The notes: generated by a model from the letters alone, not told the origin. A stretch of 59,758 bases of DNA from an uncultured Dehalococcoidales bacterium (GCA_964545665.1 CAZJGF010000001.1:1-59758), one strand, 5' to 3'; numbered from the stretch's first letter, positions 18,500 to 46,758 are shown. A program made the numbers and translations.

Positions 18500-18527
18500 A
18501 AATCACGAATTAAGGAAGGAGATTGCT

Positions 18528-21945: not shown

Positions 21946-21957
21946 GGAGGTTTGATA

Positions 21958-25181: not shown

Positions 25182-25195
25182 AAAAGGAGGGGAAA

Positions 25196-25750: not shown

Positions 25751-25753
25751 GGT

Positions 25754-27004: not shown

Positions 27005-27107
27005 GACCGTTTGAGCAAAGCGAAGGAATCCCTGAGCTGTAAATAAGAGAGAAAGGTAGCCCTCGTCCATGCTATGCTTTGTCCTGGCGAGGGGCAGGAG
27101 GTTTGTT

Positions 27108-28475: not shown

Positions 28476-28988
28476 TTGATAGGGACACAGGAGAAAGAGC
28501 AATTAGCCGAGACTTTGTCCTCATACGGTAAGGAAAGGAAAAGCTTAATTCCCTTATTGGAGGAAGTTCAGGTGGACCTGGGGTATCTTCCCAAGGAAGT
28601 GATGCAAGAGATTGCTACTTTCTTGGCCATTCCTGAAGTTGAGGTCTATGGAGTCGCCACCTTCTATAACCAATTTCGCTTTGTTCCGCTGGGGAAGCAC
28701 CATGTTAGAGTTTGCATGGGAACCGCATGTCATCTAGCAGGGGGAAAACTTATCCTAGAAGCTTTAGAAAGGGAGCTTGGCATTAAGGTGGGAGAAACTA
28801 GGGAGGATGGGGAATTCAGCCTAGAGCGAGTTGCTTGCGTTGGTTGCTGCATGCTGGCTCCGGTAATGATAGTAGGGGATGGAATTCATCCTAGGATGAC
28901 GCCTTTCAAGGCAGAGGAAGCCTTAATACCCTACAGGCAAAAATCCGATGGGGCAAGCTCAAGTGAAGAGCAAGCTGGGGCACAGTAG
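28476..28988 (+). CDS. nuoE: NuoE/HydC-like [2Fe-2S] thioredoxin-fold subunit (copy 1)
   Basis: VCMGTACHLAGG ... VACVGCCMLAPV cluster motifs. 170 aa, directly upstream of a NuoF-like gene. Confidence 0.85.
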   Translation: MIGTQEKEQLAETLSSYGKERKSLIPLLEEVQVDLGYLPKEVMQEIATFLAIPEVEVYGVATFYNQFRFVPLGKHHVRVCMGTACHLAGGKLILEALERELGIKVGETREDGEFSLERVACVGCCMLAPVMIVGDGIHPRMTPFKAEEALIPYRQKSDGASSSEEQAGAQ

Positions 28989-29001
28989 GAAAGCGTAGTG
29001 A

Positions 29002-30930
29002 ATGACGTTTCAGGAAATCCAGAACCGGGCGAAATCCGAATGGGAGAACCTTCAGAATAACGCCTATATCCTCATTGGCACAGCCACTTGTGGTAGGGCG
29101 GCTGGTGCTTTAAGCACCCTTGAGGCTTTCCAACAAGAGTTATCGCGGCGGAATATCGAGGTTAAGACCATCCAAGTTGGATGTATGGGGCTGTGCCATG
29201 CTGAGCCATTGGTCACTATATCCAAGCCTGATTCTTTCCGCGTCGTCTACGGGAACGTGACCTCCGAGCTTGTTCCCCGCCTGGTAGAAGGCTACATTGT
29301 GGGAGATGACCCCTGCCTTGAGCTTGCACTGGGTACCCTGGAGGGAGGCCAGGGAGAAGCCCCCTATATTCCGGAACTTCCTAGGTTTGAACACGAGCTC
29401 CGCCTTGTGTTCCGCCGCTGCGGCTACATCGACCCGGTGAATATAAATCATTACATCGCCAATGGTGGATATAGCAGCTTGGAAAAGGCATTAAGGAGGC
29501 AACCCGAAGAGATAATTGAGGAGGTAAAAAACTCAGAGTTGCGGGGGCGAGGTGGGGCTGGATTTCCTACTGGGCTGAAGTGGGAGTTTTGCCACAGCGC
29601 TAAAGGAGATCCGAAGTATGTGGTGTGTAATGCTGATGAGGGAGATCCAGGCGCATTTATGGACCGAGTTGTCTTGGAAAGTGACCCTCAGCAAGTTATC
29701 GAGGGAATGATTATTGGGGCTTATGTCATAAGTGCTAAGCAGGGTTACATCTATGTCCGTGTCGAGTATCCTTTAGCCGTTGAGCGGGTAAAGATTGCCT
29801 TAAAGCAAGCAGAGGAACTGGGTCTCTTGGGAGATAATATCCTAGAAAGCGGTTTTGGTTTCCATATAGAGCTAGCCATGGGAGCTGGTGCTTTCGTCTC
29901 TGGCGAGGAGACGGCACTCATGGCGGCTGTGGAAGGAGAGATGAGCACGCCCAGGCCGAGACCTCCTTATCCTGCTCAGGCGGGCTTATGGGGTAAACCT
30001 ACATTGCTGAATAACGTGAAAACTTTCGCCAACGTCCCGTTGATAATCGAGCGGGGGGCAGATTGGTTTTCCTCGATTGGCACTGAGGGAAGCAAGGGAA
30101 CAGCGGTGTTCACCCTGGCAGGCAAGGTTAACAATAAAGGATTGACCGAAGTGCCTATGGGAACAACGTTCCGTGAGATCATTTATGACATCGGTGGGGG
30201 AATCCCCGAATCCAAGTCATTTAAGGCAATACAGATTGGTGGTCCCTCAGGAGGCTGTATCCCAGCAAGCTTGCTTGATACTCCCATCGACTATGACTCC
30301 CTTCGTCAAGCTGGCTCCATGATGGGCTCGGGGGGACTAATTGTAATGGATGAGGATAACTGCATGGTTGATGCTGCAAGGTTTTTCTTGGATTTCACCA
30401 CAAAGGAGTCCTGTGGCAAATGCACCATGTGTCGTCTAGGAACCTTGCAAATGCACCAAATTCTTGAGGCTATTGTAGCCGGCAGAGCTGAACCTGAAGA
30501 CCTTAACCTCCTCTTTGAATTAGCTGAAGACGTCAAAGCAGGGTCGCTTTGTGCCTTAGGAGGAACAGCCCCAAATCCCATTCTTACTACTCTACGTTAC
30601 TTCCGAGATGAGTATGAAGCACATGTAATGGAAAAGCGCTGTCCTGCCAAGGTATGTCCTGAGCTCACCGCCTACTATATCCTTCCCGACAAGTGTGAAA
30701 GAAGCTGTGAGCATTGCGTGCTTACCTGTCCTACCGAGGCTGTTAAAGGCGAAAAAGGGGAGATAAAGGTTATTGATCAAGAGAAATGCGTTAATTGCGG
30801 CACTTGCCTGGATGTCTGCCCTCCTGAGTATGATGCGGTAGTGAAGCTATCGCCTATTAGCCAACTCCCCCCGGAAGATGCAGCAGCTAAAGAAAGGGGC
30901 ATAGCGCAGCGAGCACAACAGGTCGTATAG
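29002..30930 (+). CDS. nuoF: NuoF/HydB-like NADH- and FMN-binding subunit with a C-terminal 2x[4Fe-4S] ferredoxin domain (copy 1)
   Basis: GRGGAGFPTGLKWEF (FMN), ESCGKCTMCRLG and SLCALGGTAPNP (N3 cluster), and a C-terminal CEHCVLTCPTEA / CVNCGTCLDVCP. The N-terminal thioredoxin-like domain carries Cys motifs. Confidence 0.9.
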   Translation: MTFQEIQNRAKSEWENLQNNAYILIGTATCGRAAGALSTLEAFQQELSRRNIEVKTIQVGCMGLCHAEPLVTISKPDSFRVVYGNVTSELVPRLVEGYIVGDDPCLELALGTLEGGQGEAPYIPELPRFEHELRLVFRRCGYIDPVNINHYIANGGYSSLEKALRRQPEEIIEEVKNSELRGRGGAGFPTGLKWEFCHSAKGDPKYVVCNADEGDPGAFMDRVVLESDPQQVIEGMIIGAYVISAKQGYIYVRVEYPLAVERVKIALKQAEELGLLGDNILESGFGFHIELAMGAGAFVSGEETALMAAVEGEMSTPRPRPPYPAQAGLWGKPTLLNNVKTFANVPLIIERGADWFSSIGTEGSKGTAVFTLAGKVNNKGLTEVPMGTTFREIIYDIGGGIPESKSFKAIQIGGPSGGCIPASLLDTPIDYDSLRQAGSMMGSGGLIVMDEDNCMVDAARFFLDFTTKESCGKCTMCRLGTLQMHQILEAIVAGRAEPEDLNLLFELAEDVKAGSLCALGGTAPNPILTTLRYFRDEYEAHVMEKRCPAKVCPELTAYYILPDKCERSCEHCVLTCPTEAVKGEKGEIKVIDQEKCVNCGTCLDVCPPEYDAVVKLSPISQLPPEDAAAKERGIAQRAQQVV

Positions 30931-31701: not shown

Positions 31702-32520
31702 ATGGGAAGAGTAATTGTTTCCACAGGGAGAGGAGGAGCAGGGAAATCGACTTTTGTGGCTTTGGCTAGCAAGTATTTGAATTCGCCGAAGCTGCTGATA
31801 GACCTCGACCCTGATGAGAGTCTAGCTGACATGCTTGGAGTAGATTTGAACGAGAAAGGCAAAAAGACCATCTCAAGCGCACTCTACGACGCTATAGAGG
31901 AGAACAAAGGGGTCGGTCGCTCGGGCTACAATCTCCTATCCGAGGTACTGCAACCTGTTTTGTACCGAGGGGCAGAATTTGACCTTATCGCCCTGGGAAC
32001 GAAGTTCACCGTGGGTTGTTATTGTGCTCCAGACGCAGTGCTCAAAGACTTCATCCCCACTCTGGTTAAAGATTATGACGAGGTACTAGTAGACGCACCT
32101 GCGGGGTTGGAGCACTTCAATCGCAAGGTGGTGGTAGATATAGATGACCTGTTTGTGCTTCTGGATCCATCCGAGAAGTCCATCAAGCATATAGAAAGAG
32201 TCAAAGATATTACCAGGGAACTGAAGGTTGGTTACAATCATCTGTACCTGATAGGGAACTACAGATTTACTGAGGAAACGGAAGAGTATTTACGAAGTGC
32301 GGGAGAAGCCTATCTAGGGAAGATAGACTACGATCCTAATGTCAAACGATATAATCTGGAAGGGAGATCTCTTCTTGAGTTGCCTGGGGATTCTCCCGCT
32401 GCCCTTTCTGTAAAGAGGATTCTAGCGAAGGCAGGCTATAGAATTACGGATGGGAATCTTGCTAGTGAGTCGAGCCAGAAAATAGCCAAGAGTTCACCTT
32501 TACGGGAGACTAGGAGGTGA
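31702..32520 (+). CDS. CooC/AcsF-like ATPase with variant Walker A (tandem paralog 2)
   Basis: STGRGGAGKST and VGCYCAPDA motifs. It is collinear with 30930-31694 at both protein and DNA level. ATG 31702 is preferred to TTG 31696. Confidence 0.7.
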   Translation: MGRVIVSTGRGGAGKSTFVALASKYLNSPKLLIDLDPDESLADMLGVDLNEKGKKTISSALYDAIEENKGVGRSGYNLLSEVLQPVLYRGAEFDLIALGTKFTVGCYCAPDAVLKDFIPTLVKDYDEVLVDAPAGLEHFNRKVVVDIDDLFVLLDPSEKSIKHIERVKDITRELKVGYNHLYLIGNYRFTEETEEYLRSAGEAYLGKIDYDPNVKRYNLEGRSLLELPGDSPAALSVKRILAKAGYRITDGNLASESSQKIAKSSPLRETRR

Positions 32521-32705
32521 ATGACAAACTTATGTCCGAAAAAGAAGAGGCGATTGGTGGTTTTGGGCTTTCACTTTCAGCTACAATCCCTCAAGACGCC
32601 TATATTGCTGATTTGGAGATAATAGTAACACCGCTGGCGGAGCTCCCCTGGGATTCCCCTCTTCCAGCCAAGGTGAAAGGAGTAGCGAACTTGCTTCAAC
32701 TATAA
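32517..32705 (+). CDS. Hypothetical small protein (weak call)
   Basis: 62-aa ORF overlapping the stop of the preceding gene by 4 nt. I recognised no motif, so only position and strand support it. Confidence 0.2.
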   Translation: MNDKLMSEKEEAIGGFGLSLSATIPQDAYIADLEIIVTPLAELPWDSPLPAKVKGVANLLQL

Positions 32706-32726
32706 CAGAAGTGCATATTTGCTATA

Positions 32727-32756
32727 TTGATAGGCTTCGGCCTAAGAGGTTAAAAT
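32727..32756 (+). promoter_or_regulatory. Candidate promoter upstream of the cNMP-domain gene / FDH unit
   Basis: TTGATA (32727-32732), an 18-nt spacer, then TAAAAT (32751-32756), about 58 nt upstream of ATG 32814. Confidence 0.35.
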
Positions 32757-32813
32757 TGTGTGCTTAGCAATAAATAAGCCGGGGATTAGGGACTTGTACA
32801 GGAGGTGACAACG

Positions 32814-33293
32814 ATGGTATCAGCTGAGATGTTAGCAGGTTTTCAATCGTTTGAAGGGTTGGAGGAAAGCGAGCTAGTGGAGATAGCTAGACTTTGCCAC
32901 CAGCGAAGTTACGAGAAAGATTCAGTCATTTTTACATCGGGGGGCTCAGCTGCAGGCATTTACCTTCTCAAAGATGGTGAAGTTCACATACAGGTTGAAC
33001 TCGTCATCTATGACCTGGAGGCCAGAGCAACCATCTACACAGTGAGAAAGGGTGAGACCTTCGGCTGGTCAGCCTTGGTACCACCACATAAGTTCACAGC
33101 ATCAGCTAGATGCGGGCAAAACTCTGAAGTCCTCACCATAGATGGCCAAGACTTGATGAACATCTTGAACAAGAATAACCATATAGGCTATCTGGTCATG
33201 AGGAACCTCAGCAACGTGATAAGTGCGAGGTTGGCTGCAACCATGGTAGCACTGAGACACCAGGTCCAGAGAGCCTCGGCCAGCAGGGTGTAA
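32814..33293 (+). CDS. Stand-alone cyclic-nucleotide-binding-like domain protein
   Basis: About 160 aa with the cNMP beta-roll pattern (IYLLKDGEV ... GETFGWSALV ... ASARC). No DNA-binding or other output domain is present. ATG 32814 lies 8 nt after GGAGG. Confidence 0.7.
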   Translation: MVSAEMLAGFQSFEGLEESELVEIARLCHQRSYEKDSVIFTSGGSAAGIYLLKDGEVHIQVELVIYDLEARATIYTVRKGETFGWSALVPPHKFTASARCGQNSEVLTIDGQDLMNILNKNNHIGYLVMRNLSNVISARLAATMVALRHQVQRASASRV

Positions 33294-33451
33294 ACATATT
33301 TGGTGCGCCCCGAGGCTAAAAGGGGAAAGCCTTTATCGGCTGTGGAGGAGGCGCCGCAATCATCCATAGAGGCGGCGGAAGAAGCGTGGACCAGGTGCGA
33401 GCAAATCTGGGAAGGTAAGCTAGATATTGAAACGTAATAGGGAGACGGTGG

Positions 33452-33907
33452 ATGAAAGTAAAGGAACGTTTGACTGAAATTCTGGCGCCGTACAAAGAGA
33501 AGAAAGGTGCCCTGATACCTGTCCTGCAGCAAGTCCAAGGTGAACTGGGCTATCTCCCCAAGGAAGCAGTATCTGGAATCGCCCGCTTCTTGGGTACCTC
33601 AGAGAGCGAGGTTTTTGGTGTGGCTAGCTTCTATGCTCAGTTTCGCTTTACTAGAGCTGGGAGGCACATTGTAAAAGTATGTCTGGGCACTTCTTGCTAT
33701 GTGCGGGGTGGAGCGCGTGTCATGGAAACGGTAGAGAAAGAACTTGGCATTAGGCAAGGAGAGACTAGAACCGACTATGAATTCAGTTTAGAGAGGGTTG
33801 CTTGCTTTGGTTGCTGCGCTTTGTCTCCAGTAATGGTGGTCGACAACGGTGTTTATAGCAGGATGACTCCGACAAAGGCAAAGCAAGTCTTGTCCTCTTA
33901 TTATTAG
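33452..33907 (+). CDS. nuoE: NuoE/HydC-like [2Fe-2S] subunit (copy 2)
   Basis: VCLGTSCYVRGG ... VACFGCCALSPV motifs. 151 aa, paralogous to 28476-28988. Confidence 0.85.
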   Translation: MKVKERLTEILAPYKEKKGALIPVLQQVQGELGYLPKEAVSGIARFLGTSESEVFGVASFYAQFRFTRAGRHIVKVCLGTSCYVRGGARVMETVEKELGIRQGETRTDYEFSLERVACFGCCALSPVMVVDNGVYSRMTPTKAKQVLSSYY

Positions 33908-33921
33908 CTTTGGAGGCTGGG

Positions 33922-36900
33922 ATGACCTTTGAAGAGATTCAGAGTCGAGCCGAATTGGAGTGGGAAACCTTAGCGCATAGTGAAAAGCCCCGCATCCTCG
34001 TTGGCGCTGCCACCTGTGGTCGCTCAGCGGGTGCGCTAAACGTGCTCCAGACTATTAATGATGAGCTAGCCAAGCGTAGTATTGATGCTATTGTGATACA
34101 GGTGGGATGTATCGGGCTATGTTATCTTGAGCCTTTGGTTGATATCATCAAGCCAGGTCGTCCTCGCATTTGCTATGGCAATATCACCCCCGAAATCGCA
34201 CCTGAACTTGTGGAAGACTACCTAATTAAGGACGATGCTCGCCCTGATTTAGCCCTGGGGACGATAGGTGATGGGGACATTAATGGCGTTCCCAGATTCT
34301 TTGATTTGCCCATGCTCAAACCACAGGTTCGCATCATTCTGAGAAATTGTGGGACTATTGATCCCGAAAATATTAATCACTATATTGCCAATGGTGGTTA
34401 TAATGGATTTGCTCGAGCGCTTGAGATGAGCCCAGAGGAAGTCATAGAAGAGATTAAGCGGTCAGGGCTTAGGGGACGAGGTGGTGCTGGCTTCCCTACA
34501 GGGCTGAAGTGGGAGTTCTGCCGTAAATCTCCTGGCAGGGGAAAATACCTCGTTTGCAATGCTGATGAAGGAGATCCGGGAGCCTTCATGAATCGGTCCG
34601 TTTTGGAAGGAGATCCACATGCTGTGCTGGAGGGCATGCTTATCGCTGCCTACGCTATAGGGGCAACACACGGCTATATCTATTGCCGCGCCGAATACCC
34701 ACTGGCACTGGAACGATTGAATATCGCCCTGGCTACGATGAAGGAGTACGGCCTTCTGGGGGAAAGCATCCTTGGTTCGAGCTTCAATTTCAACATAGAA
34801 ATCAAAGAGGGAGCAGGAGCTTTCGTCTGCGGCGAAGAGACGGCATTGATGGCTTCTATCGAGGGCAAAAGGGGCATGCCTCGTCCTCGTCCTCCCTTCC
34901 CCGCTCAATCCGGCATCTGGGGTAAACCAACCAACATCAACAATGTAGAGACCCTTGCCGCTGTGGCGGCGATTCTGCAAAGAGGCGCAGATTGGTATGC
35001 CCAATACGGAACGGAGAGGAGCAAGGGAACAAAGACCTTTGCTTTAGCCGGAAAGATAAAGCGCACCGGACTCATCGAAGTTCCCTTAGGCATCACCCTT
35101 CGTGAGATCATCTATGATATTGGTGGCGGTATTGCTGACGATAAGCCGTTTAAGGCAGTGCAGACTGGCGGTCCTTCAGGAGGTTGTCTTTCTGCTGACC
35201 AGCTTGATCTCCCTGTAGACTATGAGACCTTGACTAGGGCCGGTTCCATCATGGGCTCAGGTGGCATGATCGTTGCTGACGAGGATACTTGCATCGTTGA
35301 TTTTGCCAAGTTTTTCCTCACCTTCACTCAAGCCGAATCCTGTGGAAAATGTGTCCCCTGCCGAGTGGGCACAAGGCAGATGCTAGATATCTTGGAACGC
35401 ATAACCCGTGGAGAGGGGCAAGATGACGACATCGATAAACTACAGCAGCTTGCTGAAACGGTCAAGGATGGCTCGCTCTGTGCTTTGGGGAGAACGGCGC
35501 CTAATCCTGTCCTGACTACTCTCCGCTACTTTCATGATGAATATGAAGCTCACATCAAGAGAAAGAAATGTCCCGCTGCAGTCTGTAAAGGGCTGGTTAA
35601 AGCTCCCTGCAGCCATACCTGTCCTGCTGGGGTGGATGTACCCCGCTACCTCCGCTTCATTGGCCAAGGTAAGTTTGACGAGGCATTGGCTGTAGTTCGG
35701 GAGAAAATCCCTTTTCCCTCAGTCTGTGGGCGTGTCTGCCCTCATCCCTGTGAAGCCAAGTGCAGGCGAGGGGAGGTGGACGAACCAATTGCCATTAGAG
35801 CACTCAAGCGCTTTGCCGCTGAAAGGGGGAACGGACTCTGGAAAGTCAAAGCAAGAATGGCTCTGGCTACAGGTAAGCGAGTGGTCATCATTGGCTCTGG
35901 GCCAGCAGGACTGACCGCAGCCTACTACTTGGCGAAACGAGGGCATAGTGTCACTGTGCTCGAGGCGCTCCCTGAGCCAGGTGGCATGATGAGGTACGGC
36001 ATTCCTGAGTATCGTTTGCCCAGAGAAGTATTGGCCGAAGAGATTGAGGAGATAAAGGGTGTTGGCGTCAACATAGAGCTGAATACTAAAGCAAGCTCTT
36101 TGGACGAACTTTTCGCCCAAGGCTATAACGCCATTTTCCTCGCTATCGGTGCTCACCAAGGGGCTAAGCTTAACATAAAGGGGGAGGATAGCCCTGAGGT
36201 TATCGAGGCTGTGTCCTTCCTCAGGGAGATAAATATGGGGAATGAGATCAAGGTAGGCGGCAGGGTCGCTGTCATTGGCGGAGGCAATGCCGCCATAGAT
36301 GCCTCTCGCAGTGCTCTTCGTCTTGGTGGCAGAGAGGTAACCATTGTCTATCGCCGAAGCAGAACTGAGATGCCAGCAAGCGAGGAAGAGATAGAGGAGG
36401 CGATACATGAAGGGATAAGGATAGATTTCCTTGCCGCCCCAACTAGAATAGAGAGAAAAGATGCTGCGGTGGAGCTCATATGCATTCGCATGGAGTTGGG
36501 GGCAGTGGATGCCAGCGGTAGAAGGCGGCCAGTGCCAATCGAAGGCAGCGAATCTAGTTCGATCTTTGATACTGTGATTGCTGCCATCGGTCAGCTGCCA
36601 AAGGCTCCAGAGCAATTTGGGCTTCCTCTGGGAAAGGGAAATGTGTTCCAAGTTGACCCTTATACCTTAGCTACAGGCAGGGATGGGGTCTTTGCTGGCG
36701 GCGACGCCGTCACTGGACCAGCCACGGTCATCGAGGCTATCGCTGCCGGAAGGCAGGCGGCAACCTCGATTGATAAATACTTGGGCGGCAGCGGAGTTAT
36801 AGACGAAACGCTGGCATCGCCTGAGGAACTAGAGGCGCTGCCCGACATTGAGGAGGGGGAGAGGCATCGCAGCCCAATACCCACTCTGCCTTTAAACGAC

Positions 36901-37002
36901 CGACTTGGTAGCTTTGCTGAGGTGGAGCTTGGACTCAGCGAAGAGATAGCCACTGCGGAGGCAAGACGGTGCTTAAGGTGCGATTTGGAGGAGCGGGAGT
37001 AA
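33922..37002 (+). CDS. NuoF/HydB-like subunit fused to a GltD/NfnB-like NAD(P)H:FAD oxidoreductase module
   Basis: The N-terminal ~550 aa match the NuoF copy at 29002 (GRGGAGFPTGLKWEF, ESCGKCVPCRVG, SLCALGRTAPNP). From about 35570 onward the motifs are GltD-type: CPAGVDVPRY, CGRVCPHPCEAKCRR, IIGSGPAGLTAAYYL, GGMMRYGIPEYRLP, VIGGGNAAIDASR, GVFAGGDAVTGP. ATG 33922 gives the same MTFEEIQ start as the paralog. Confidence 0.9.
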   Translation: MTFEEIQSRAELEWETLAHSEKPRILVGAATCGRSAGALNVLQTINDELAKRSIDAIVIQVGCIGLCYLEPLVDIIKPGRPRICYGNITPEIAPELVEDYLIKDDARPDLALGTIGDGDINGVPRFFDLPMLKPQVRIILRNCGTIDPENINHYIANGGYNGFARALEMSPEEVIEEIKRSGLRGRGGAGFPTGLKWEFCRKSPGRGKYLVCNADEGDPGAFMNRSVLEGDPHAVLEGMLIAAYAIGATHGYIYCRAEYPLALERLNIALATMKEYGLLGESILGSSFNFNIEIKEGAGAFVCGEETALMASIEGKRGMPRPRPPFPAQSGIWGKPTNINNVETLAAVAAILQRGADWYAQYGTERSKGTKTFALAGKIKRTGLIEVPLGITLREIIYDIGGGIADDKPFKAVQTGGPSGGCLSADQLDLPVDYETLTRAGSIMGSGGMIVADEDTCIVDFAKFFLTFTQAESCGKCVPCRVGTRQMLDILERITRGEGQDDDIDKLQQLAETVKDGSLCALGRTAPNPVLTTLRYFHDEYEAHIKRKKCPAAVCKGLVKAPCSHTCPAGVDVPRYLRFIGQGKFDEALAVVREKIPFPSVCGRVCPHPCEAKCRRGEVDEPIAIRALKRFAAERGNGLWKVKARMALATGKRVVIIGSGPAGLTAAYYLAKRGHSVTVLEALPEPGGMMRYGIPEYRLPREVLAEEIEEIKGVGVNIELNTKASSLDELFAQGYNAIFLAIGAHQGAKLNIKGEDSPEVIEAVSFLREINMGNEIKVGGRVAVIGGGNAAIDASRSALRLGGREVTIVYRRSRTEMPASEEEIEEAIHEGIRIDFLAAPTRIERKDAAVELICIRMELGAVDASGRRRPVPIEGSESSSIFDTVIAAIGQLPKAPEQFGLPLGKGNVFQVDPYTLATGRDGVFAGGDAVTGPATVIEAIAAGRQAATSIDKYLGGSGVIDETLASPEELEALPDIEEGERHRSPIPTLPLNDRLGSFAEVELGLSEEIATAEARRCLRCDLEERE

Positions 37003-37018
37003 GTTTGATTACGAGCAG

Positions 37019-39697
37019 GTGAGCATGGATACTGTTACTTTGATTATTGACGGTAAGGAAGTAAAAGCGAGAAAGGGAACCACAGTTTTAGACGCAGCTC
37101 TAGAAGCGGACATTTATATTCCTACACTTTGCTACCACCCAGACCTAACTCCCTTTGGTGCCTGCCGCCTGTGCATCGTGGAGATCGAAGGGATGGTCGG
37201 CTTTCCCCCGGCATGCACTACCCCGGCGGCTGAAGGAATGACAGTCCATACCAATACCGAAAAGTTGCAGGAGCTTCGCCGCAATATAATGGAGCTGATT
37301 TTGAGCGAACATCCGTATTCCTGCCTCACCTGCTCCAAAAACCTAAATTGCGAATTGCAGAGGGTTGCTCGCTATATCGGACTGGAAAAAGTAACTCTCC
37401 CTTATACCAGTAAGGAACTCCCCATTGATAGGGAAAACCCGTTCTTCGACCGAGATTATAACTTGTGCATTCTTTGTGGTCGCTGCGTCCGCATGTGCCA
37501 AGAGGTACGCAAGGTGGGAGCCATCTCCTTTATCTATCGAGGGAGTAAGGCTTTGATAGGTACTGCCTTCGATCGCCCGCTACAGGAAGTGAGCTGCGAA
37601 TTCTGCGGCGCTTGCATTGATGCTTGCCCTACTGGAGCCCTGACGGAGAGAACCAATAAGTGGGAGGGTTTGCCTGACCGTGAAGTAGTCACTATTTGCC
37701 CATATTGTGGTGTTGGCTGCCAACTCAAGCTCAAGGTCAAGGATGAGAGAATAATGACTACCGTCCCCGCTCCAGACGGCGTGACCAATCATGGTCAAGC
37801 ATGTGTCAAGGGCCGTTTCGGTATCGCTGAATTTGTCCATCACCCCCAGCGTTTGACTTCTCCCTTAATAAGACAGAACGGGGAGTTGAAAGAGGCATCT
37901 TGGGAGGAAGCGGTAGGGCTGGTGGCCAGGAAACTGAGAACTTATAAAGCAGAGGAAGTAGGGTTAATTGCCTCAGCCAAGTGCACCAACGAGGAGAATT
38001 ATGTCATGCAAAAACTTGCTCGAGCGGTGCTGGGCAGCAACAACGTTGATCACTGTGCCCGACTATGTCATGCTCCCACTGTGACCGGCCTCGTTCAAAG
38101 CTTTGGTAGCGGAGCTATGACTAATTCCATCAACGAAATTGGCCACGCCGCTTGCATTCTTGCTATCGGCACTAACACTACGGAAAATCACCCAGTGATC
38201 GGGCTTGAAGTGAAGAAAGCAGTAGATAGGGGGGCAGAACTCATCGTAGCGAATCCTCGCGAAATTGACCTCTGCCGCTTTGCCAGCCTCTGGCTACGGC
38301 ATAGCCCGGGCACAGATGTTGCCTTGCTCATGGGTATGATGCGGGTTACAGTGGACGAGGAATTGTTCGACTCAGCGTTTATCAGAGAGAGATGTGAAAA
38401 CTTCGATGCTTTTAAGGAATCGTTAAGAAACTTTGACCTTGATTTTGTCGAGCAGGTCACCAGAGTGCCGCAGGACGAGATAGCAGAAGCTGCCCGCACG
38501 TATGCTACTAATAGTCCTGCCATGCTGCTCTACGCCATGGGTATCACCCAGCATTCCCATGGCACCGACAATGTGGTGGCTACAGCCAACCTGGCAATGC
38601 TAACTGGAAACATAGGCAAGCCCTCAGCCGGGGTCAATCCGCTCAGAGGCCAGAACAATGTGCAAGGTGCTTGCGATATGGGTGCTCTGCCCAATGTTTA
38701 CAGCGGCTATCAGGCAGTAGCTGATCCGGCTGTTAGAGAGAGGTTTGAGATTGCCTGGGGCTGCTCATTACCTTCATCTCCAGGGCTAACCTTGGTTGAG
38801 ATGCTTGAAGCTGCATATCGGAATGAGATAAAGGCGCTTTACCTCATTGGCGAGAATCCGGCAATGAGCGACCCTGATCTTGGACATATTCGAGAAGCAC
38901 TAGCTAGAGTCGAATTTCTTGTTGTTCAAGATGTTTTCCTTTCGGAGACCGCAGAGTTTGCCCATGTTGTTTTGCCAGCGGCAAGTTTTGCTGAGAAGGA
39001 CGGTACCTTCACCAACACTGAGCGGCGAGTGCAACGAGTAAGGAGGGCTATTGAGCCAATTGGGGATTCTAAGCCGGATTGGTGGATCGTCTGCCAGCTA
39101 GCCAAGAGGTTAGGAGCTAGAGGGTTTGACTATAGCCACCCGCTTGACATAATGGAGGAAATCCGCCATCTCACTCCCAGCTATGGTGGCATAAGTTACC
39201 AGAGGTTAGAGGCCGGTGGACTCCAATGGCCCTGCCGTACTGATGACCATCCAGGTACACCGGTACTGCATGTGAATACTTTTGCCAGGGGGAAAGGTAG
39301 ATTCATCCCACTGGAATATATCCCCCCTGCGGAGCTGGCAGACGAAGACTATCCTTTGATTCTCACCACAGGCCGTAGTCTGTACCACTTTCATAGCGGG
39401 ACAATGACTCGGAAAGTAGCTGGCCTCAATATCATAGAGCCTGAAGGTACAGTGGAAATTAGCCCCAGCGATGCTTCACGGCTCAGCGTAGCCCAGGGGG
39501 ACAGGGTTAGAATCAGCTCTCGGCGTGGTGAAATCATCGCTAAAGCCAAAGTAACTGAGGCATCGCCTCCTGGAGTGGTGTTTATGACCTTCCATTTCGC
39601 CGAAAGTCCCGCCAATATCCTTACCAACCCTAAGCTAGACCCAATGTCCAAGATTCCTGAACTCAAAGTCTCAGCAGTCAGGGTAGAAAGACTGTGA
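37019..39697 (+). CDS. fdhA: Formate dehydrogenase catalytic subunit (Mo/W-bis-PGD), cysteine type, with an N-terminal FeS domain
   Basis: N-terminal [2Fe-2S] and [4Fe-4S] motifs. The catalytic domain has ICPYCGVGCQ and the active-site block DHCARLCHAP, with a TGT Cys codon at 38066-38068 where Sec-type enzymes carry TGA. ATG 37025 is an alternative start. Confidence 0.9.
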   Translation: MSMDTVTLIIDGKEVKARKGTTVLDAALEADIYIPTLCYHPDLTPFGACRLCIVEIEGMVGFPPACTTPAAEGMTVHTNTEKLQELRRNIMELILSEHPYSCLTCSKNLNCELQRVARYIGLEKVTLPYTSKELPIDRENPFFDRDYNLCILCGRCVRMCQEVRKVGAISFIYRGSKALIGTAFDRPLQEVSCEFCGACIDACPTGALTERTNKWEGLPDREVVTICPYCGVGCQLKLKVKDERIMTTVPAPDGVTNHGQACVKGRFGIAEFVHHPQRLTSPLIRQNGELKEASWEEAVGLVARKLRTYKAEEVGLIASAKCTNEENYVMQKLARAVLGSNNVDHCARLCHAPTVTGLVQSFGSGAMTNSINEIGHAACILAIGTNTTENHPVIGLEVKKAVDRGAELIVANPREIDLCRFASLWLRHSPGTDVALLMGMMRVTVDEELFDSAFIRERCENFDAFKESLRNFDLDFVEQVTRVPQDEIAEAARTYATNSPAMLLYAMGITQHSHGTDNVVATANLAMLTGNIGKPSAGVNPLRGQNNVQGACDMGALPNVYSGYQAVADPAVRERFEIAWGCSLPSSPGLTLVEMLEAAYRNEIKALYLIGENPAMSDPDLGHIREALARVEFLVVQDVFLSETAEFAHVVLPAASFAEKDGTFTNTERRVQRVRRAIEPIGDSKPDWWIVCQLAKRLGARGFDYSHPLDIMEEIRHLTPSYGGISYQRLEAGGLQWPCRTDDHPGTPVLHVNTFARGKGRFIPLEYIPPAELADEDYPLILTTGRSLYHFHSGTMTRKVAGLNIIEPEGTVEISPSDASRLSVAQGDRVRISSRRGEIIAKAKVTEASPPGVVFMTFHFAESPANILTNPKLDPMSKIPELKVSAVRVERL

Positions 39698-39749
39698 GGA
39701 CTTTGCAAGAGATATTAGCTGCGAGCACCAGGCTTCTCAGGTCAAATCT

Positions 39750-40673
39750 TCAGGGGCGGGGGCAAAGGCCGGCTGCGCTACAGATTCTTGGAATAGTCTC
39801 CTCTCGCTGAAGGGTCATGATGTGGATGCCCGCTACCCCTTCTACCTCTTTCAGTTGATTTATTGTGGCGATAGCGATTTTTGTCCCTTCCGTTGCCATT
39901 TCTTCTTTCGTGCGAGCCTTTAGGAGGCGTTCAATAATTTCATCTGGGACGTCAGTATTGGGGACTTTTGTCTTCATATACCTTGCTGCTGCTAGGGATG
40001 TTATGGGACTGATTCCAGCAAGGATTTTAACCTTCCTATCTAGTCCCTCTTCTTGAACAAGCTCCATCCATTTCTTAAATCTCTCAATGTTATAAACAGG
40101 CTGCGTCTGGACAAAATCTGCCCCGACAGCAACCTTATCCCTCAGGCGAATCACTTCGTCCTCTAGGGATTCGGCAAAGGGGTTTGCTCCTGCCCCAATG
40201 AAAAGTCGTGGCTCTCTTCCAGCTATTGGCTGTCCATTTTCAAACTCTTTCTCATCCCGGAGTCGTTTGACCATCCTGATAAACTGGATGGAATCGAGGT
40301 CGAAGACGGGCTTTGCCTCAGGACAATTTCCGAAAGAAACAGGATCCCCGGAGAGACAAAGTATGTTATTCACGCCAAACGCGGAGATGCCCAACACATC
40401 CATTTGGAGAGCAATTCGATTTCTGTCACGACAAGTCATTTGCGCTATGGGATCAAGACCCTCTTGTTTGCCTATAAGGCAGGCTGCCCAGCTTGCCATC
40501 GCTACCACCGCTGACTCTCCATCTGGGACATTAAAAGCATCAACATAGCCCTTAATCAGATTGAATTTTTCCCTTATCGCCTCGGTCTCCGTATTCTGAG
40601 GGGGACCAACTTGAGCAGTTACGGCAAAACATCCTGTTCCAAGTATCCTCTCCAGGTTGCTTTTCGTCTTCAT
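39750..40673 (-). CDS. metF: Methylenetetrahydrofolate reductase (acetogen-type MetF), stand-alone copy
   Basis: 307 aa with MTCRDRNRIALQ, LCLSGD, and FVQTQPVYN blocks. It is collinear with the second copy at 46759. Confidence 0.85.
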   Translation of the reverse strand: MKTKSNLERILGTGCFAVTAQVGPPQNTETEAIREKFNLIKGYVDAFNVPDGESAVVAMASWAACLIGKQEGLDPIAQMTCRDRNRIALQMDVLGISAFGVNNILCLSGDPVSFGNCPEAKPVFDLDSIQFIRMVKRLRDEKEFENGQPIAGREPRLFIGAGANPFAESLEDEVIRLRDKVAVGADFVQTQPVYNIERFKKWMELVQEEGLDRKVKILAGISPITSLAAARYMKTKVPNTDVPDEIIERLLKARTKEEMATEGTKIAIATINQLKEVEGVAGIHIMTLQREETIPRICSAAGLCPRP

Positions 40674-40763
40674 TTTGAACCCTGTAGCAAATATCTTATC
40701 ATGGTTTGCTGAAATTGATATACCTCGTTGCCAGCTTTCTGGAAACGATTAAACCACCAGTAT

Positions 40764-40792
40764 TTGCAGAAATCCTTAGAAGTACTTATAAT
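40764..40792 (+). promoter_or_regulatory. Candidate sigma-70-type promoter for the kinase/regulator/hdr unit
   Basis: TTGCAG (40764-40769), a 17-nt spacer, then TATAAT (40787-40792). The annotated GTG at 40806 has no SD, which implies a very short leader. An inverted repeat AGCAAA-n13-TTTGCT lies at 40686-40710 in the same divergent region. Confidence 0.4.
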
Positions 40793-40805
40793 GTAAACCC
40801 TTGAA

Positions 40806-41936
40806 GTGAAAGCAGTAACCGGGTTGGGCTCAGGCAAGGAAATACTAAAAGAATCAGACCTGTTCCGCGGTCTGAGCGACGATGAACTAGATAAGCTGCC
40901 ACCGCTTTGCCAGGAAGAAGTTTATGAGGCTGGGGTGGTTGTTTTCCTTGAAGGCGGCTGCTGCCATGCTATGTATATTGTGGAATCGGGCAAGGTGGCT
41001 CTGGAAATGAACCTTCATATTGGTCGGGTGGCAGAGGAAAGTGCGACGATTGACGTAATAACTAAAGGTGGCTGCTTGTGTTGCTCAGGGCTGATAGATC
41101 CTTGTATCCTTACTGCCACAGGCCGGACTCTTGAGACAACCAGGGTTGTTGTCTTAGATACGGCAGAGCTTATAGGCTTGCTCCAAGAGAACCCTGAAAT
41201 AGGATGTAAGGTGATGAATAACCTGGCCAAGATAGTTTCTTCAAGGCTTAAACACATTAGGGATACGATGGGACGTATTCTGTCCGTTATTTTCCACGAC
41301 CTAAAGGCTCCCTTGGCTGCGGTGGAAAGCTATAATCGGCTGTTGCTTGGTGAGTTCGCCGGAGAATTGAATGAGGAGCAAACGAACATAGTGAAAAGAA
41401 GTAGCAAGAGACTCTCTGATCTTCTAAATTTGGTGAGTAACATCATCGATTTTTCCCGAGTTGGTTTCGGGGACTTGAGGATGGAGAGAATTCCTGTGGG
41501 AAAAGTGATAGAAGATTGCATTGAAGCTATGCGCCCCTTAGCTGAGGAAAAGGGACTGCAACTGGTTGCTGAAGTATCTCCAGAACTCCCCGCTGTTCTC
41601 GGAGTTCAAGAGCGGCTTAAGCAGGTAGTTACCAACCTGTTGTCCAATGCCATTAAATTTACTCCTCACGGAGTAGTAACGGTTAAGGCGAGGGATGGTG
41701 CGGATGGCATACAGGTAGAGGTGGCGGATACCGGGATTGGTATTCCTGCCGAGGAATTGCCTAGGATATTTGATGGCTTCTATCGAGGTCTTGACATGGC
41801 TGAAAGGGGGGCTGGCCTAGGGCTTTCCATAACTAAGCAAATAGTTGAGGCCCACCGTGGTAGGATATGGGTGGTTAGCCCCTGTCCTGAAACCGGGAAG
41901 GGAAGCAAATTTGCCTTCACTTTGCCAAGGACTTGA
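40806..41936 (+). CDS. Cytoplasmic sensor histidine kinase with an N-terminal cNMP-binding-like domain
   Basis: H-box FHDLKAPL, N-box LLSNAIKFTP, G-boxes DTGIGI and GAGLGLS. The N-terminal ~150 aa have a cNMP-like fold pattern with a Cys-rich stretch (GGCLCCSGLIDPC). No TM segments are present. Confidence 0.8.
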   Translation: MKAVTGLGSGKEILKESDLFRGLSDDELDKLPPLCQEEVYEAGVVVFLEGGCCHAMYIVESGKVALEMNLHIGRVAEESATIDVITKGGCLCCSGLIDPCILTATGRTLETTRVVVLDTAELIGLLQENPEIGCKVMNNLAKIVSSRLKHIRDTMGRILSVIFHDLKAPLAAVESYNRLLLGEFAGELNEEQTNIVKRSSKRLSDLLNLVSNIIDFSRVGFGDLRMERIPVGKVIEDCIEAMRPLAEEKGLQLVAEVSPELPAVLGVQERLKQVVTNLLSNAIKFTPHGVVTVKARDGADGIQVEVADTGIGIPAEELPRIFDGFYRGLDMAERGAGLGLSITKQIVEAHRGRIWVVSPCPETGKGSKFAFTLPRT

Positions 41937-42000: not shown

Positions 42001-42423
42001 ATGGCTAAGATTCTGGTAGTAGATGATGACCCTGACATGCGGCTGGCAATTGGTAGCGTGCTAAAGTCGCGTTCCTATGAGATAGTTGAGGCTCGCGATG
42101 GAGAGGAGGCTCTAGCTAGGCTGAATGAAGAAAAGCCAGACTTAATGCTCCTAGACCTTCTGCTGCCAAAGATGGATGGTTTTGCTGTTGTCAAGGAGCT
42201 CAAGAACACCCAGGAGAGGTATCCCAGCGTACCTATACTAATCATAAGCTCGGTAAGGGAGGAAGCCAGTCACCGGCGCTATGAGCTAGAGGTAGGTCAT
42301 AAACTCAATATTGATGAGTATATTGAAAAACCCATTGAGCCGTTTATTCTACTGGAGCGTGTAGAGAGGCTTTTGTCTAAAGGAGGAAAAGATGCAAAAA
42401 CAAACCAAGATACTGGTCATTGA
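42001..42423 (+). CDS. Single-domain response regulator (CheY-like)
   Basis: ILVVDDD ... DLMLLDLLLPKMDG receiver motifs. 140 aa with no output domain. Confidence 0.85.
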   Translation: MAKILVVDDDPDMRLAIGSVLKSRSYEIVEARDGEEALARLNEEKPDLMLLDLLLPKMDGFAVVKELKNTQERYPSVPILIISSVREEASHRRYELEVGHKLNIDEYIEKPIEPFILLERVERLLSKGGKDAKTNQDTGH

Positions 42424-42799
42424 TGACGACCCCGATTTGCAGGCAGCAGTGAAGAAGGTGCTTGAAAGTAAGTCCTACGAAGTGGCTGCTGCGCTCAACG
42501 GAGACGAAGGTTTGCGGAAGGTAGTGGATGAAAGGCCCGATCTAATCATTCTAGACGTAGTGATGCCAGGTAAGAGTGGATTCGAGGTTTGCAAAGAACT
42601 CAAGACTGACCCAAAATATTACTTCTTCTCTCACATCCCTGTGCTGATGCTAACCGTTTATCCTGACGACAGAGAAAAGATGCACCTCTCTATGCGAGAG
42701 GGGATGACGATGGAGGCGGAAGACTACCTGCACAAGCCATTTGATCCTGACGAACTGCTAAACCGAGTGGAGGAATTGCTAGAAAAGAAAGAAAACTAG
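42392..42799 (+). CDS. Single-domain response regulator (CheY-like)
   Basis: ILVIDDD ... DLIILDVVMPGKSG ... KPF receiver motifs. 135 aa. It overlaps the preceding gene. Confidence 0.85.
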   Translation: MQKQTKILVIDDDPDLQAAVKKVLESKSYEVAAALNGDEGLRKVVDERPDLIILDVVMPGKSGFEVCKELKTDPKYYFFSHIPVLMLTVYPDDREKMHLSMREGMTMEAEDYLHKPFDPDELLNRVEELLEKKEN

Positions 42800-42802
42800 A
42801 TA

Positions 42803-44044
42803 GTGAATAAGTCAGTTGCAGTTATTGGCGGCGGCATAAGCGGAATAACTTCAGCATTAGAATTAGCCAATAGCGGCTTTAGAGTATACTTAATAGAGAG
42901 AGAAGCAGCAATTGGAGGGCAAGCTGCTTCTTTTTGTTGCAAGGCAACAGAGATCTGCACAAAGTGCTCAGTCTGCTTAATACCCCAAAAACTCAATAAG
43001 GTCGCAGTTCATTCCAAAATCTCGATCCTGACTGATTCGACAGTGGCAGGCTTAAGCGGCAAAGCCGGATATTTTGAGGTCGAAGTGCTTCGAAAACCTC
43101 AATATATTGCTCCAGAGAGATGTGTTGCTTGTGGAATATGTGCCCGAGTCTGTCCTACTGAACCTAAGGCAATCCGTTCTCCTTCCCCGGATGCAATCCC
43201 TTATTGTTATGTCATCGATGAAAGTCGATGTCTTCGCCTTAGAGGTGAAAAGTGCAACCTCTGTCGGGGAACGTGTCCCACAAACGGCATAGATTTTGAC
43301 CGGGAGCCAGAAAGGAAGGAGCTAAGCGTCAGTGCTATCATCGTTGCTACCGGATTCGAGGTTTTCAATGCTCGAGAAATGGGCTCCTTGGGCTATAGTA
43401 GATATCCTAACGTTCTGACTGGCCTTGACCTTGAGAGGATGTTCAATCGGTGGGGCTTTCTTAGACTTCCCTCCAATGGGAAAGAGCCTCGAAAAGTCGC
43501 CTTCATCCAGTGTGTAGGCTCAAGGGATGAAACTCGTGGCTATTGTTCCCAGGTATGCTGCAAGTATGCCATGAGGTTTGCTCGGCTTATCAAATATCAA
43601 AACCCAAATACTGAGGTGACCATCTTTTATATTGACCTTCAGACTGCTGGAAAGGGCTTTGCCGAGTTTTATGAAGAGTGTCGAGGGAATATTCAATTTA
43701 TTCGAGGAGTGCCAGTGGAAATTCTGGAGACCTCCGGGGAACTCGAGGTAAGGTTTGAGAATATTCTAGAAGGGAAGGTTGAACGAGAAACCTTTGACCT
43801 TGTAACCCTTTCGGTGGGCATCACCCCCAGGAAAGACTCCTGGAATCTGGCGAGAGTCTTGGGAATAAATTTGGGAGACCATGGCTTCTTCGATACCAAG
43901 GAGCCGTTTAATTCCATAGAGACGAATGTTGAGGGGATTTTCCTTGCCGGAACTTGTCAGGGTCCTAAAGACATCCCTGATTCTATTGCTCATGGAGTGG
44001 CTGCGGCAGAGGGAGCAATGGGGGTTCTAGAGAAATGCAAGTAA
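42803..44044 (+). CDS. hdrA: HdrA-like flavoprotein (first half of a split tandem HdrA)
   Basis: VAVIGGGISGITSALELA FAD motif, ferredoxin motifs CVACGICARVCP / CNLCRGTCP, and the HdrA signature FIQCVGSRDE..YCSQVCC. The usual LDKTFPT.DCS.C block is replaced by SFCCKATEICTKCSVC. Confidence 0.8.
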   Translation: MNKSVAVIGGGISGITSALELANSGFRVYLIEREAAIGGQAASFCCKATEICTKCSVCLIPQKLNKVAVHSKISILTDSTVAGLSGKAGYFEVEVLRKPQYIAPERCVACGICARVCPTEPKAIRSPSPDAIPYCYVIDESRCLRLRGEKCNLCRGTCPTNGIDFDREPERKELSVSAIIVATGFEVFNAREMGSLGYSRYPNVLTGLDLERMFNRWGFLRLPSNGKEPRKVAFIQCVGSRDETRGYCSQVCCKYAMRFARLIKYQNPNTEVTIFYIDLQTAGKGFAEFYEECRGNIQFIRGVPVEILETSGELEVRFENILEGKVERETFDLVTLSVGITPRKDSWNLARVLGINLGDHGFFDTKEPFNSIETNVEGIFLAGTCQGPKDIPDSIAHGVAAAEGAMGVLEKCK

Positions 44045-46741: not shown

Positions 46742-46758
46742 ATCATAGGGGGTGGAAA

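Follow-up and report, generated by a model that had tools for sequence, protein, structure and literature searches.

A NuoF::GltD fusion subunit in a formate dehydrogenase operon of uncultured Dehalococcoidia and its probable connection to both NADH and NADPH

The DNA analysed here, referred to as the window, is a stretch of 59,758 nucleotides from an uncultured Dehalococcoidales bacterium (GCA_964545665.1 CAZJGF010000001.1:1-59758). At positions 33,452 to 39,697 it carries three genes, nuoE2, nuoF::gltD and fdhA, which form a genuine formate dehydrogenase (FDH) operon within a carbon-fixation gene island. In the fused NuoF subunit a GltD-like module is found where electron-bifurcating enzymes of the Bfu type have a ferredoxin-like domain, and the enzyme probably links formate/CO2 to both NADH and NADPH. 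We propose, at roughly even confidence, that it is an FDH/CO2 reductase associated with the Wood-Ljungdahl pathway, which would couple formate/CO2 to NAD(H) and NADP(H) and hold NADP(H) in the branch that usually serves ferredoxin. The NuoF::GltD design is widespread but unrecognised, and should be of interest to the electron-bifurcation field.

The operon and its cofactor sites

The original prediction described nuoE2, nuoF::gltD and fdhA as a same-strand operon behind a gene with a cyclic nucleotide monophosphate (cNMP) domain. The open reading frames (ORFs), the domains and the short gaps all agree with that description:

33452-33907, + strand: NuoE2, a NuoE/BfuC/StnA-like, thioredoxin-like [2Fe-2S] subunit, 151 aa (PF01257, E=9e-49)
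33922-37002, + strand: NuoF::GltD fusion, 1026 aa from the ATG at 33922 (maximal ORF 33910-37002 from a TTG, 1030 aa)
37019-39697, + strand: FdhA, cytoplasmic FDH alpha subunit with molybdenum/tungsten bis-pyranopterin guanine dinucleotide (Mo/W-bisPGD) and NuoG-like N-terminal Fe-S domains, 892 aa

The genes are separated by 14 nt and then by 16-22 nt. The ATG at 33922, a few codons inside the maximal ORF, is the likely true start of the fusion, because it sits behind a GGAGG and gives a protein of 1026 aa, matching the length of nearly all homologues (1023-1030 aa). FdhA could possibly start at the ATG at 37025 instead of 37019. NuoE2 is also matched by the NuoE and FDH-gamma NCBIfam models, has ligand cysteines at positions 77, 82, 118 and 122, and is predicted to be the carrier of the C1 cluster.

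The fusion protein shows the domain order Complex1_51K (E=2e-46), SLBB, NADH_4Fe-4S (E=4e-35), Fer4_20 and Pyr_redox_2, and the NCBIfam model PRK12771 spans residues 517-1024 (residue numbers of the fusion follow ORF numbering). It can be divided as follows:

33922-34314, + strand: N-terminal thioredoxin-like domain, aligning to the N-terminal domains of 7t2r_B, 9bov_B, 9n5u_B and 8oh5_B
34315-35553, + strand: FMN/NAD(H) Rossmann-like core, SLBB domain and four-helix bundle with the B1 [4Fe-4S] cluster
35551-35586, + strand: hinge ("B2") site, H548-x5-C554-x4-C559, together with Cys461
35587-35844, + strand: GltD/NfnB-type Fe-S region (Fer4_20, PF14691, E=1e-24) with six of the eight cluster cysteines
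35857-36804, + strand: FAD and NADP(H) Rossmann folds of the GltD-like module (Pyr_redox_2, PF07992, E=5e-33)
36805-36999, + strand: C-terminal tail, ...EARRC1021LRC1024DLEERE, with the last two cluster ligands

The NuoF half (residues ~24-561) is 65-70% identical to the B subunits of structurally solved electron-bifurcating Bfu enzymes. It scores 769 bits against NiFe-HydB of A. mobile (7t2r_B), 753 bits against NfnB of C. saccharolyticus (Csac; 9bov_B), 730 bits against NfnB of T. sibiricus (Tsi; 9n5u_B) and 727 bits against StnB of S. ovata (8oh5_B). The FMN domain alone gives 400-430 bits against bifurcating B subunits, compared to 328 bits for Nqo1 of T. thermophilus and 262-292 bits for FdsB. 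In an alignment of 125 fusion sequences, the cofactor ligands and nucleotide motifs of both halves are 93-100% conserved, the ligands taken alone 98-100%. The motifs GRGGAGFPTG, NADEGDPGAFM and GAGAFVCGEETAL, together with the B1 ligands Cys478/481/484/524, reach 95-100%, and the Bfu-type GAFM signature is kept. In the N-terminal domain, at the region of the Bfu B5 site, Cys36, 67 and 71 are 98% conserved and the fourth cysteine (Cys88) 32%; StnB likewise lacks two of the four cysteines of this site. The glutamate of the GEETAL motif is present in the FMN site of the fusion. In E. coli complex I this glutamate disfavours NADPH.

The hinge residues H548/C554/C559/C461 correspond to H524/C529/C534/C437 in the structure of Tsi NfnB (PMC12018979) and are invariant in the 125 sequences. 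The hinge histidine is conserved in Bfu B subunits and missing from non-bifurcating homologues (PMC12018979). In the NiFe enzyme an extra cysteine turns B2 into a [2Fe-2S] cluster; as the fusion has a threonine at this position, the hinge probably holds Zn, as in the Stn, Nfn and FeFe enzymes. The fusion junction lies directly after this hinge, with the GltD module beginning 7 residues past the last hinge cysteine. A canonical NuoF encoded in the same window allows the two C-termini to be compared:

28476-28988, + strand: NuoE1, comparator, downstream of the genes for carbon monoxide dehydrogenase/acetyl-CoA synthase (CODH/ACS)
29002-30930, + strand: NuoF1, canonical comparator of 642 aa that keeps the two-cluster ferredoxin-like C-terminus

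NuoF1 and the fusion are collinear through ...RYFxDEYEAHxxxKxCPAxVC. Past this stretch NuoF1 continues with two CxxCxxCxxxCP motifs, whereas in the fusion the GltD-like module starts here, with ...KGLVKAPCSHTCPAG.... The Bfu B3/B4 domain (two CX2CX2CX3CP motifs) is thus missing from the fusion with the GltD module in its place, and the earlier statement that this module replaces the terminal ferredoxin domain proves literally correct.

The GltD half is closest to the corresponding modules of the transhydrogenases, with 417 bits against Csac NfnA (9bov_A), 405 bits against Tsi NfnA (9n5u_A) and 375 bits against StnC (8oh5_C). T. maritima NfnB (304 bits), P. furiosus NfnI-L (286 bits) and the glutamate synthase small subunits fall behind. 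It shares with StnC and NfnA their circular permutation with respect to NfnB/GltD. Residues 6-43 of T. maritima NfnB (4ylf_B) are matched by the fusion tail (...FAEVELGLSEEIATAEARRCLRCD), which also aligns to the segment following the GltD module in StnC and Csac NfnA and is thereby identified as the permuted first segment of NfnB/GltD. Since the tail matches the N-terminus of T. maritima NfnB, Cys1021 and Cys1024, both 100% conserved, complete the set of eight cysteines for two [4Fe-4S] clusters (567, 571, 606, 610, 614, 618, 1021 and 1024). Lys633, equivalent to K170 of StnC, is conserved in the module, in which the FAD-binding GxGxxG (GSGPAG) and the arginine of GIPEYRLP (equivalent to R239 of StnC) are also present. 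GGGNAAID...VTIVYRRSRTEMPA corresponds to the NADPH-binding stretch of StnC, NfnA and T. maritima NfnB. The arginine pair of the NADPH motif VYRRSRTEMPA is 100% conserved, and the stretch GGGNAAID...VYRRSRTEMPA is the same as in StnC, NfnA and NfnB, whose NADPH specificity is experimentally established.

FdhA scores 881 bits against TIGR01591 (cut-off 666). Its residues 6-889 are collinear with FdsA-type alpha subunits (9wxb_B, 860 bits; 6tg9_A, 836 bits), and its set of Fe-S ligands is complete. A search of FdhA for a twin-arginine translocation (Tat) signal found none. The active-site residue is a cysteine, as the original prediction had read it:

38066-38068, + strand: TGT codon for Cys350, the Mo/W ligand where other FDHs carry selenocysteine (Sec)

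Cys350 stands in the context HCARLC350H351APTV, followed directly by His351, and the catalytic Arg543 lies in RGQNNVQG (codon 38645-38647). All three cofactor sites that had been proposed, FMN/NAD(H), FAD/NAD(P)H and Mo/W-bisPGD, are therefore present by their motifs and ligands.

Distribution, relatives and history of the fusion

When 5.8 billion proteins were searched, the fusion was found in more than 120 clusters (1023-1030 aa, 69-98% identity). The clusters are drawn from NCBI, JGI, ENA and Logan assemblies, and those with names are labelled "NuoF" of Dehalococcoidia or Chloroflexi metagenome-assembled genomes (MAGs). An exact-sequence look-up of the window protein returned no record. Protein P0001 is 98% identical to it and lies on a 7.6-kb Logan contig (L081; L numbers denote the loci and contigs compared) with the same gene order. 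At the 50% cluster level, about 10 more representatives with 39-51% identity share the full-length architecture. The fusion is widespread in uncultured Dehalococcoidia, where it is hidden under the "NuoF" annotation, and is not rare; hundreds of proteins that are fusions now carry this label only.

The survey of other genomes suggested in the original prediction was also made at the level of loci. With each GTDB species represented by one genome, 13 fusion loci came to light, the majority in Dehalococcoidia. The others comprise one labelled "delta proteobacterium", one in Deltaproteobacteria HGW-15 (57% identity) and one in Bacteroidota (54% identity). Among these loci, NuoE precedes the fusion wherever upstream sequence exists, and a true FdhA follows it in 11 of the 12 with a readable downstream gene, at gaps of 1-105 nt; in the Bacteroidota locus the place of FdhA is taken by an A subunit that is NuoG-like and degenerate. 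The junction spacing C-x4-C-x7-C-x3-C is the same in all 13. Eight of the FdhA proteins have a cysteine ligand, and two have Sec encoded by TGA at the position of Cys350 (L008, 9102-11816; L010, 9124-11823), while the sequence of L004 ends before the ligand. Cys/Sec switching thus occurs within this operon type, and the Cys ligand of the window FdhA is ordinary, FdsA of R. capsulatus being another Cys-type enzyme. It is noted that L010 has an additional, separate [NuoG-N::GltD] gene after FdhA.

The same modules also occur in other arrangements. The canonical NuoE–NuoF(Fd)–FdhA order, in which NuoF retains its ferredoxin-like domain (Type 1 Fdh-Bfu), recurs in Dehalococcoidia, often followed by a separate [NuoG-N-like::GltD] gene. 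Short Stn-like operons of the form NuoE–NuoF(Fd)–[NuoG-N::GltD], which have no catalytic domain, are found in Dehalococcoidia and in MAGs of Thermoplasmata, Bathyarchaeota, NPL-UPA2 and Coprothermobacterota. In L041, L044, L046, L056 and L072, FdhA itself carries an inserted GltD module, as in the StnC architecture, with the Cys/His active site intact. In four of these (L041, 10785-13683; L046, 17-2821; L056, 7931-12073; L072, 11323-13821) the GltD/NfnB insert sits between the N-terminal Fe-S domains and the catalytic domain, and the catalytic domain is 67-80% identical to that of the window FdhA. The GltD-inserted FdhA of L056 stands behind NuoE and a NuoF with a ferredoxin domain, an arrangement with four potential substrate sites. 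L072 is syntenic with the window (CdhA at 83% identity, NuoE1/F1, two CooC genes and MetF) and has the GltD-inserted FdhA form at the place of the NuoF fusion.

A fusion of 51% identity, P0121, lies in operons with an [FeFe]-hydrogenase (L082-L084), represented by the following feature of L082, which is also found in L083 and L084:

5490-10949 of L082: NuoE–NuoF::GltD (1034 aa)–[FeFe]-hydrogenase HydA (607 aa)

The fused B subunit is therefore a module that can serve different catalytic A subunits. More distant fusions with 39-42% identity (P0127, P0129, P0133, P0136 and P0153; L086, L087) stand alone and adjoin response regulators. In these the FMN/NAD motifs are degenerate, while the B1 cluster, the hinge His/Cys3 and all eight GltD cysteines are kept, and the NuoF half appears from its motifs to be a vestigial scaffold. 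We had considered these proteins as dual-nucleotide transhydrogenases; this idea was dropped because of the degenerate FMN/NAD motifs, and the stand-alone fusions lend no support to a dual-nucleotide function.

In neighbour-joining trees, which carry no support values, the GltD halves of the Dehalococcoidia fusions form one clade and the NuoF halves are scattered among unfused NuoFs. The window NuoF core is 86% identical to the unfused protein of L011, compared to 70-75% for other fused forms. The discordance of the two halves points to either a fusion that arose once, with later recombination between nuoF paralogs, or repeated exchange of the module.

Proposed mechanism and competing explanations

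The known systems closest to this operon are the Stn/NfnABC transhydrogenases (S. ovata StnABC, 8oh5; C. saccharolyticus, 9bov; T. sibiricus, 9n5u). StnA is NuoE-like, StnB NuoF-like, and StnC bears a GltD-like NADPH/FAD domain (PMC7483475, PMC10482914). The window operon shares with them NuoE-like and Bfu-type NuoF-like subunits, a permuted GltD/NfnB-type NADPH-FAD module with two [4Fe-4S] clusters, a NuoG/FdhF-like subunit, and NAD(H) and NADP(H) sites in one complex, predicted in its own case. Two differences are clear. In Stn it is the NuoG/FdhF-like subunit that carries the GltD module as an insert, and B3/B4, the domain on which ferredoxin docks, is still present on the B subunit, whereas here the module replaces B3/B4 on B. 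The FdhF-like domain of Stn is catalytically dead, whereas the active site of FdhA (Cys350/His351/Arg543) is intact. The original comparison to Stn-type enzymes is consequently sound as regards the likeness to StnA, StnB and StnC, with the GltD half at 375-417 bits, but the placement of that module is reversed. Judged from its sequence, the complex would be most like Stn/NfnABC in its working, except that formate/CO2 is gained and ferredoxin lost.

Type 1 Fdh-Bfu and HylABC-FdhF2 (Schut et al. 2022, PMC9304861) show the same NuoE–NuoF–FdhA order, a pterin-bearing A subunit and a Bfu-type BC core, and the canonical form is found in many neighbouring Dehalococcoidia (for example, L015, L019 and L024). 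However, their B subunit has a two-cluster ferredoxin-like C-terminus, absent here, and uses ferredoxin as the third substrate. The census of Bfu enzymes chose B subunits by their ferredoxin-type domain (PMC9304861), so that NuoF::GltD fusions would have been missed. FdsABG (R. capsulatus, 6tg9; C. necator) has a Cys-type FdsA collinear with FdhA and NuoE/NuoF-like partners, but FdsB has a single FMN/NAD site and none of the Bfu hinge, extra clusters or second nucleotide module, in contrast to the hinge and FAD/NADPH module of the fusion. In T. onnurineus Fdh3, which is also Cys-type, and in the sfrB2-sfrA2-fdhF3 system of M. thermoacetica, an NfnL/GltD-type FAD/NADPH protein with the Arg-Arg 2'-phosphate motif serves a W/Mo FDH, as proposed here; GltD/NfnL-like subunits make these FDHs NADP-dependent (PMC8965080, PMC13040438). 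Enzymes of the Fdh3 type have no NuoE/NuoF FMN module, and their separate NADPH subunit is joined via ferredoxin-like subunits, whereas NuoE2 and the NuoF core are intact in the window. The HdrA–NfnB fusions of ANME-1 (PMC9012536) resemble the present case in that the ferredoxin domain of a bifurcating flavoprotein has received an NfnB-like NADPH/FAD module, but the host protein is HdrA rather than NuoF, and the similarity is an analogy only. A description of a NuoF::GltD or HydB::GltD fusion was not found in the searchable literature. The closest published remark concerns Dehalobacteriia, in which Stn-like genes are found together with an FDH gene, "functional significance unclear". The complex departs from defining features of the Bfu, Stn and FdsABG families and is a variant within known kinds, not categorically new.

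In Bfu enzymes, electrons travel from the A-subunit chain through B1 to FMN, where NAD(H) binds; the NuoE-like C1 cluster swings between FMN and B3, and the B3/B4 clusters of the C-terminal ferredoxin-like domain of B hand the low-potential electron to ferredoxin (PMC12018979, PMC10482914, PMC10021017). Deletion of the HydB C-terminus abolishes the ferredoxin branch (PMC12018979, PMC10021017). In the fusion, B3/B4 is exchanged at the hinge for two [4Fe-4S] clusters predicted to lead through FAD to NADP(H). Because these clusters, FAD and an NADPH site stand where B3/B4 should be, we infer that NADP(H) takes the place of ferredoxin as the third substrate. The net reaction would be 2 formate + NAD+ + NADP+ <-> 2 CO2 + NADH + NADPH, and the enzyme would be a ferredoxin-independent, Stn-like three-way redox hub. 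The cofactor sites, the domain replacement and the conservation of the operon are read directly from the sequences. The assembly of the subunits into one complex, binding of NAD(H) rather than NADP(H) at FMN, electron passage between FMN and FAD, and obligatory coupling of the two nucleotides are what this proposal presumes beyond them.

By our estimate, the CO2/formate couple would lie at about -310 to -340 mV at micromolar to 0.1 mM formate, with a mostly oxidised NAD pool at about -280 mV and a mostly reduced NADP pool at about -370 to -380 mV. Running forward, the enzyme could then use the exergonic NAD+ branch to drive formation of NADPH. In reverse, NADPH could help NADH to reduce CO2, much as reduced ferredoxin aids NADH in confurcating hydrogenases that make H2.

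Several points weigh against this coupled mechanism. Splitting electrons between NAD+ and NADP+ would, by the same estimate, pay only at low (micromolar to sub-millimolar) formate and with an unequal poise of NADH and NADPH. The nucleotide specificity of the FMN site is not readable from its residues, and HydB of T. kivui, which has the same fold, uses NADP+ (PMC10021017). In L056, L072 and L041 the GltD module is found on the A-subunit side, as in Stn, and the position in the "ferredoxin branch" may accordingly not be mechanistically decisive. An AlphaFold2 monomer model of the fusion (50-sequence alignment) has a mean predicted local distance difference test score (pLDDT) of 73.8 and a predicted template modelling score (pTM) of 0.54, with low confidence at the junction and the cluster loops. 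The orientation of the two halves, as a rigid dock or a tether, is left undefined by the model.

The main rival is an uncoupled dual-cofactor FDH, in which FMN/NAD(H) and FAD/NADP(H) are independent ports on one Fe-S wire to the pterin, with no gating, and NADPH:NAD+ transhydrogenation is a side reaction. We regard it as possible, if on the unlikely side. The non-bifurcating FdsABG shares the NuoE/NuoF/FdsA plan, with FdhA collinear with FdsA, GltD/NfnL-type subunits alone suffice to give an NADP-dependent FDH (PMC8965080), and under standard conditions thermodynamics hardly requires formate-driven reduction of NAD+ to be coupled to that of NADP+. However, the NuoF core has the Bfu-specific N-terminal thioredoxin-like domain, the His/Cys3 hinge and GAFM, and scores far above the FdsB level against bifurcating B subunits. 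The GltD module is also placed at the distal position that, in solved Bfu structures, is reached only via the mobile NuoE cluster (PMC12018979).

A stronger version of the coupled mechanism, which we put forward only tentatively, is a ferredoxin-free, "pyridine-nucleotide-only" Bfu enzyme. The FMN/Fe-S site would split formate electrons to NAD+ (downhill) and to NADP+ (uphill, against a highly reduced NADPH pool), and NADPH would aid CO2 reduction in the reverse direction, which would make the enzyme a formate-linked transhydrogenase. If this is true, the existence of an H2-linked version with the same fused B subunit implies a general, unrecognised Bfu subclass that includes both forms. Single-FMN bifurcation in Bfu-type enzymes is still debated. 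A low-potential branch ending in bound FAD/NADP(H) would offer a simple, all-spectrophotometric test system and indicate that the branch can be re-plumbed. It would also explain how Dehalococcoidia, which are abundant in the subsurface, keep NADH, NADPH and formate in balance in the Wood-Ljungdahl pathway while sparing reduced ferredoxin. Some biotechnological interest would attach to a CO2 reductase that is of the Cys type, linked to NAD(P)H and free of ferredoxin.

The coupled mechanism has further to be weighed against a continued role for ferredoxin, which the original prediction had raised as confurcation. Ferredoxin could dock on the exposed [4Fe-4S] cluster of GltD, as in NfnAB, or on NuoE, giving a four-substrate FDH/Stn hybrid (for example, reduced ferredoxin + NADH + NADP+/CO2). 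This is improbable in our judgment. What speaks against confurcation with ferredoxin is that the fusion has lost precisely the canonical B3/B4 domain, on which ferredoxin docks in Bfu enzymes (PMC12018979, PMC10021017). The GltD module, moreover, is of the StnC/NfnA type, which has lost bifurcation, as marked by its Lys ligand and by 9bov_A and 8oh5_C as nearest relatives. On the other side, the two [4Fe-4S] clusters of the GltD-like subunit of NfnAB are a ferredoxin route (PMC10482914, PMC8097209), ferredoxin in Tsi NfnABC is wedged partly against the NuoE-like C-terminal domain (PMC12018979), and L056 retains a ferredoxin domain together with an intact, GltD-bearing FdhA.

It is very improbable that the GltD module is inert or structural, leaving a plain NAD-dependent FDH, or that the fusion acts apart from FdhA, for instance as a stand-alone NAD(P)H oxidoreductase. 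Divergent stand-alone NuoF::GltD proteins without NuoE or A-subunit neighbours do exist, with one degenerate half (the FMN site), but in the Dehalococcoidia family both halves keep all cofactor motifs (93-100%) and synteny with NuoE and FdhA is nearly universal. Finally, an assembly or frameshift artefact joining nuoF and gltD-like genes, for which no support was found other than the occurrence of unfused arrangements of the same modules in related genomes, is refuted by conservation across assemblies, loci and divergent clusters (the more than 120 clusters, the 13 loci with the same junction and the about 10 divergent representatives) and can practically be dismissed.

Genes surrounding the operon

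The operon lies among the following features of the window:

15550-17058, + strand: MttB-family (trimethylamine methyltransferase-like) protein with two Pfam-matched stretches, ~1.4 kb upstream of fhs
18480-20291: Fhs
20342-21001: NuoG-N-terminal-like Fe-S protein of 219 aa, upstream of CODH/ACS
21061-28472: archaeal-type CODH/ACS (CdhA with Fer4 insert, CdhB, CdhC, CdhD)
32805-33293, + strand: stand-alone cNMP-binding-domain protein, 162 aa (PF00027, E=1e-12)
39750-40673, - strand: MetF-like methylenetetrahydrofolate reductase, convergent with and next to the operon (PF02219, E=1e-39)
40806-41936 and 42001-42799: cNMP-domain histidine kinase and two single-domain response regulators, downstream of the operon
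42803-46075, + strand: split HdrA-like gene (413 + 554 aa) and MvhD, ahead of MetV–MetF
46079-47649, + strand: MetV–MetF pair (second MetF paralog)
48169-52611, + strand: multi-flavoprotein of 1480 aa with three Pyr_redox_2/NAD_binding_8 stretches, a Fer4_20 GltD-type region and C-terminal 2x[4Fe-4S]
54941-57757, - strand: 938-aa protein with the third GltD-like module of the window (N-terminal FAD-binding fold, Fer4, Fer4_20, Pyr_redox_2)

The Wood-Ljungdahl genes of the window comprise Fhs, CODH/ACS, two MetF paralogs, MetV and HdrA-MvhD, and this setting is compatible with a role of the enzyme at the entry to the methyl branch. A metF-like gene is also adjacent in L003-L006, L047, L052, L056 and L072.

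The stand-alone cNMP gene ends 158 nt upstream of nuoE2, and its product is a possible regulator rather than part of the enzyme. A cNMP gene is likewise found ahead of the operon in the 98%-identical contig L081, and related operons in L026 and L030 are preceded by cNMP-domain genes with 36-38% identity. Taken together, these genes suggest cyclic-nucleotide control of formate/C1 metabolism. It should be noted that cNMP-binding domains flank the FDH operon on both sides (32805-33293 and 40806-41936, 42001-42799). A riboswitch or other RNA ahead of the operon was rejected as a candidate, since Rfam gave no match in the whole window at the gathering threshold and none in 32400-33600 at E<=1. A promoter and terminator scan of 32400-40900 returned counts close to shuffle expectation and was uninformative.

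The CODH/ACS genes are followed by NuoE1/NuoF1 (28476-30930) and then by two CooC-like ATPases, in the same order as in L072. Together with the NuoG-N-like protein upstream, they look like a "Codh-Bfu" arrangement. The HdrA-like, MvhD and MetV–MetF genes are arranged as in the Moorella-type MetFV-HdrABC-MvhD reductase. The 1480-aa multi-flavoprotein, encoded just after the HdrA-like/MvhD/MetV/MetF genes, resembles the HdrA–NfnB fusions of ANME-1 (PMC9012536).

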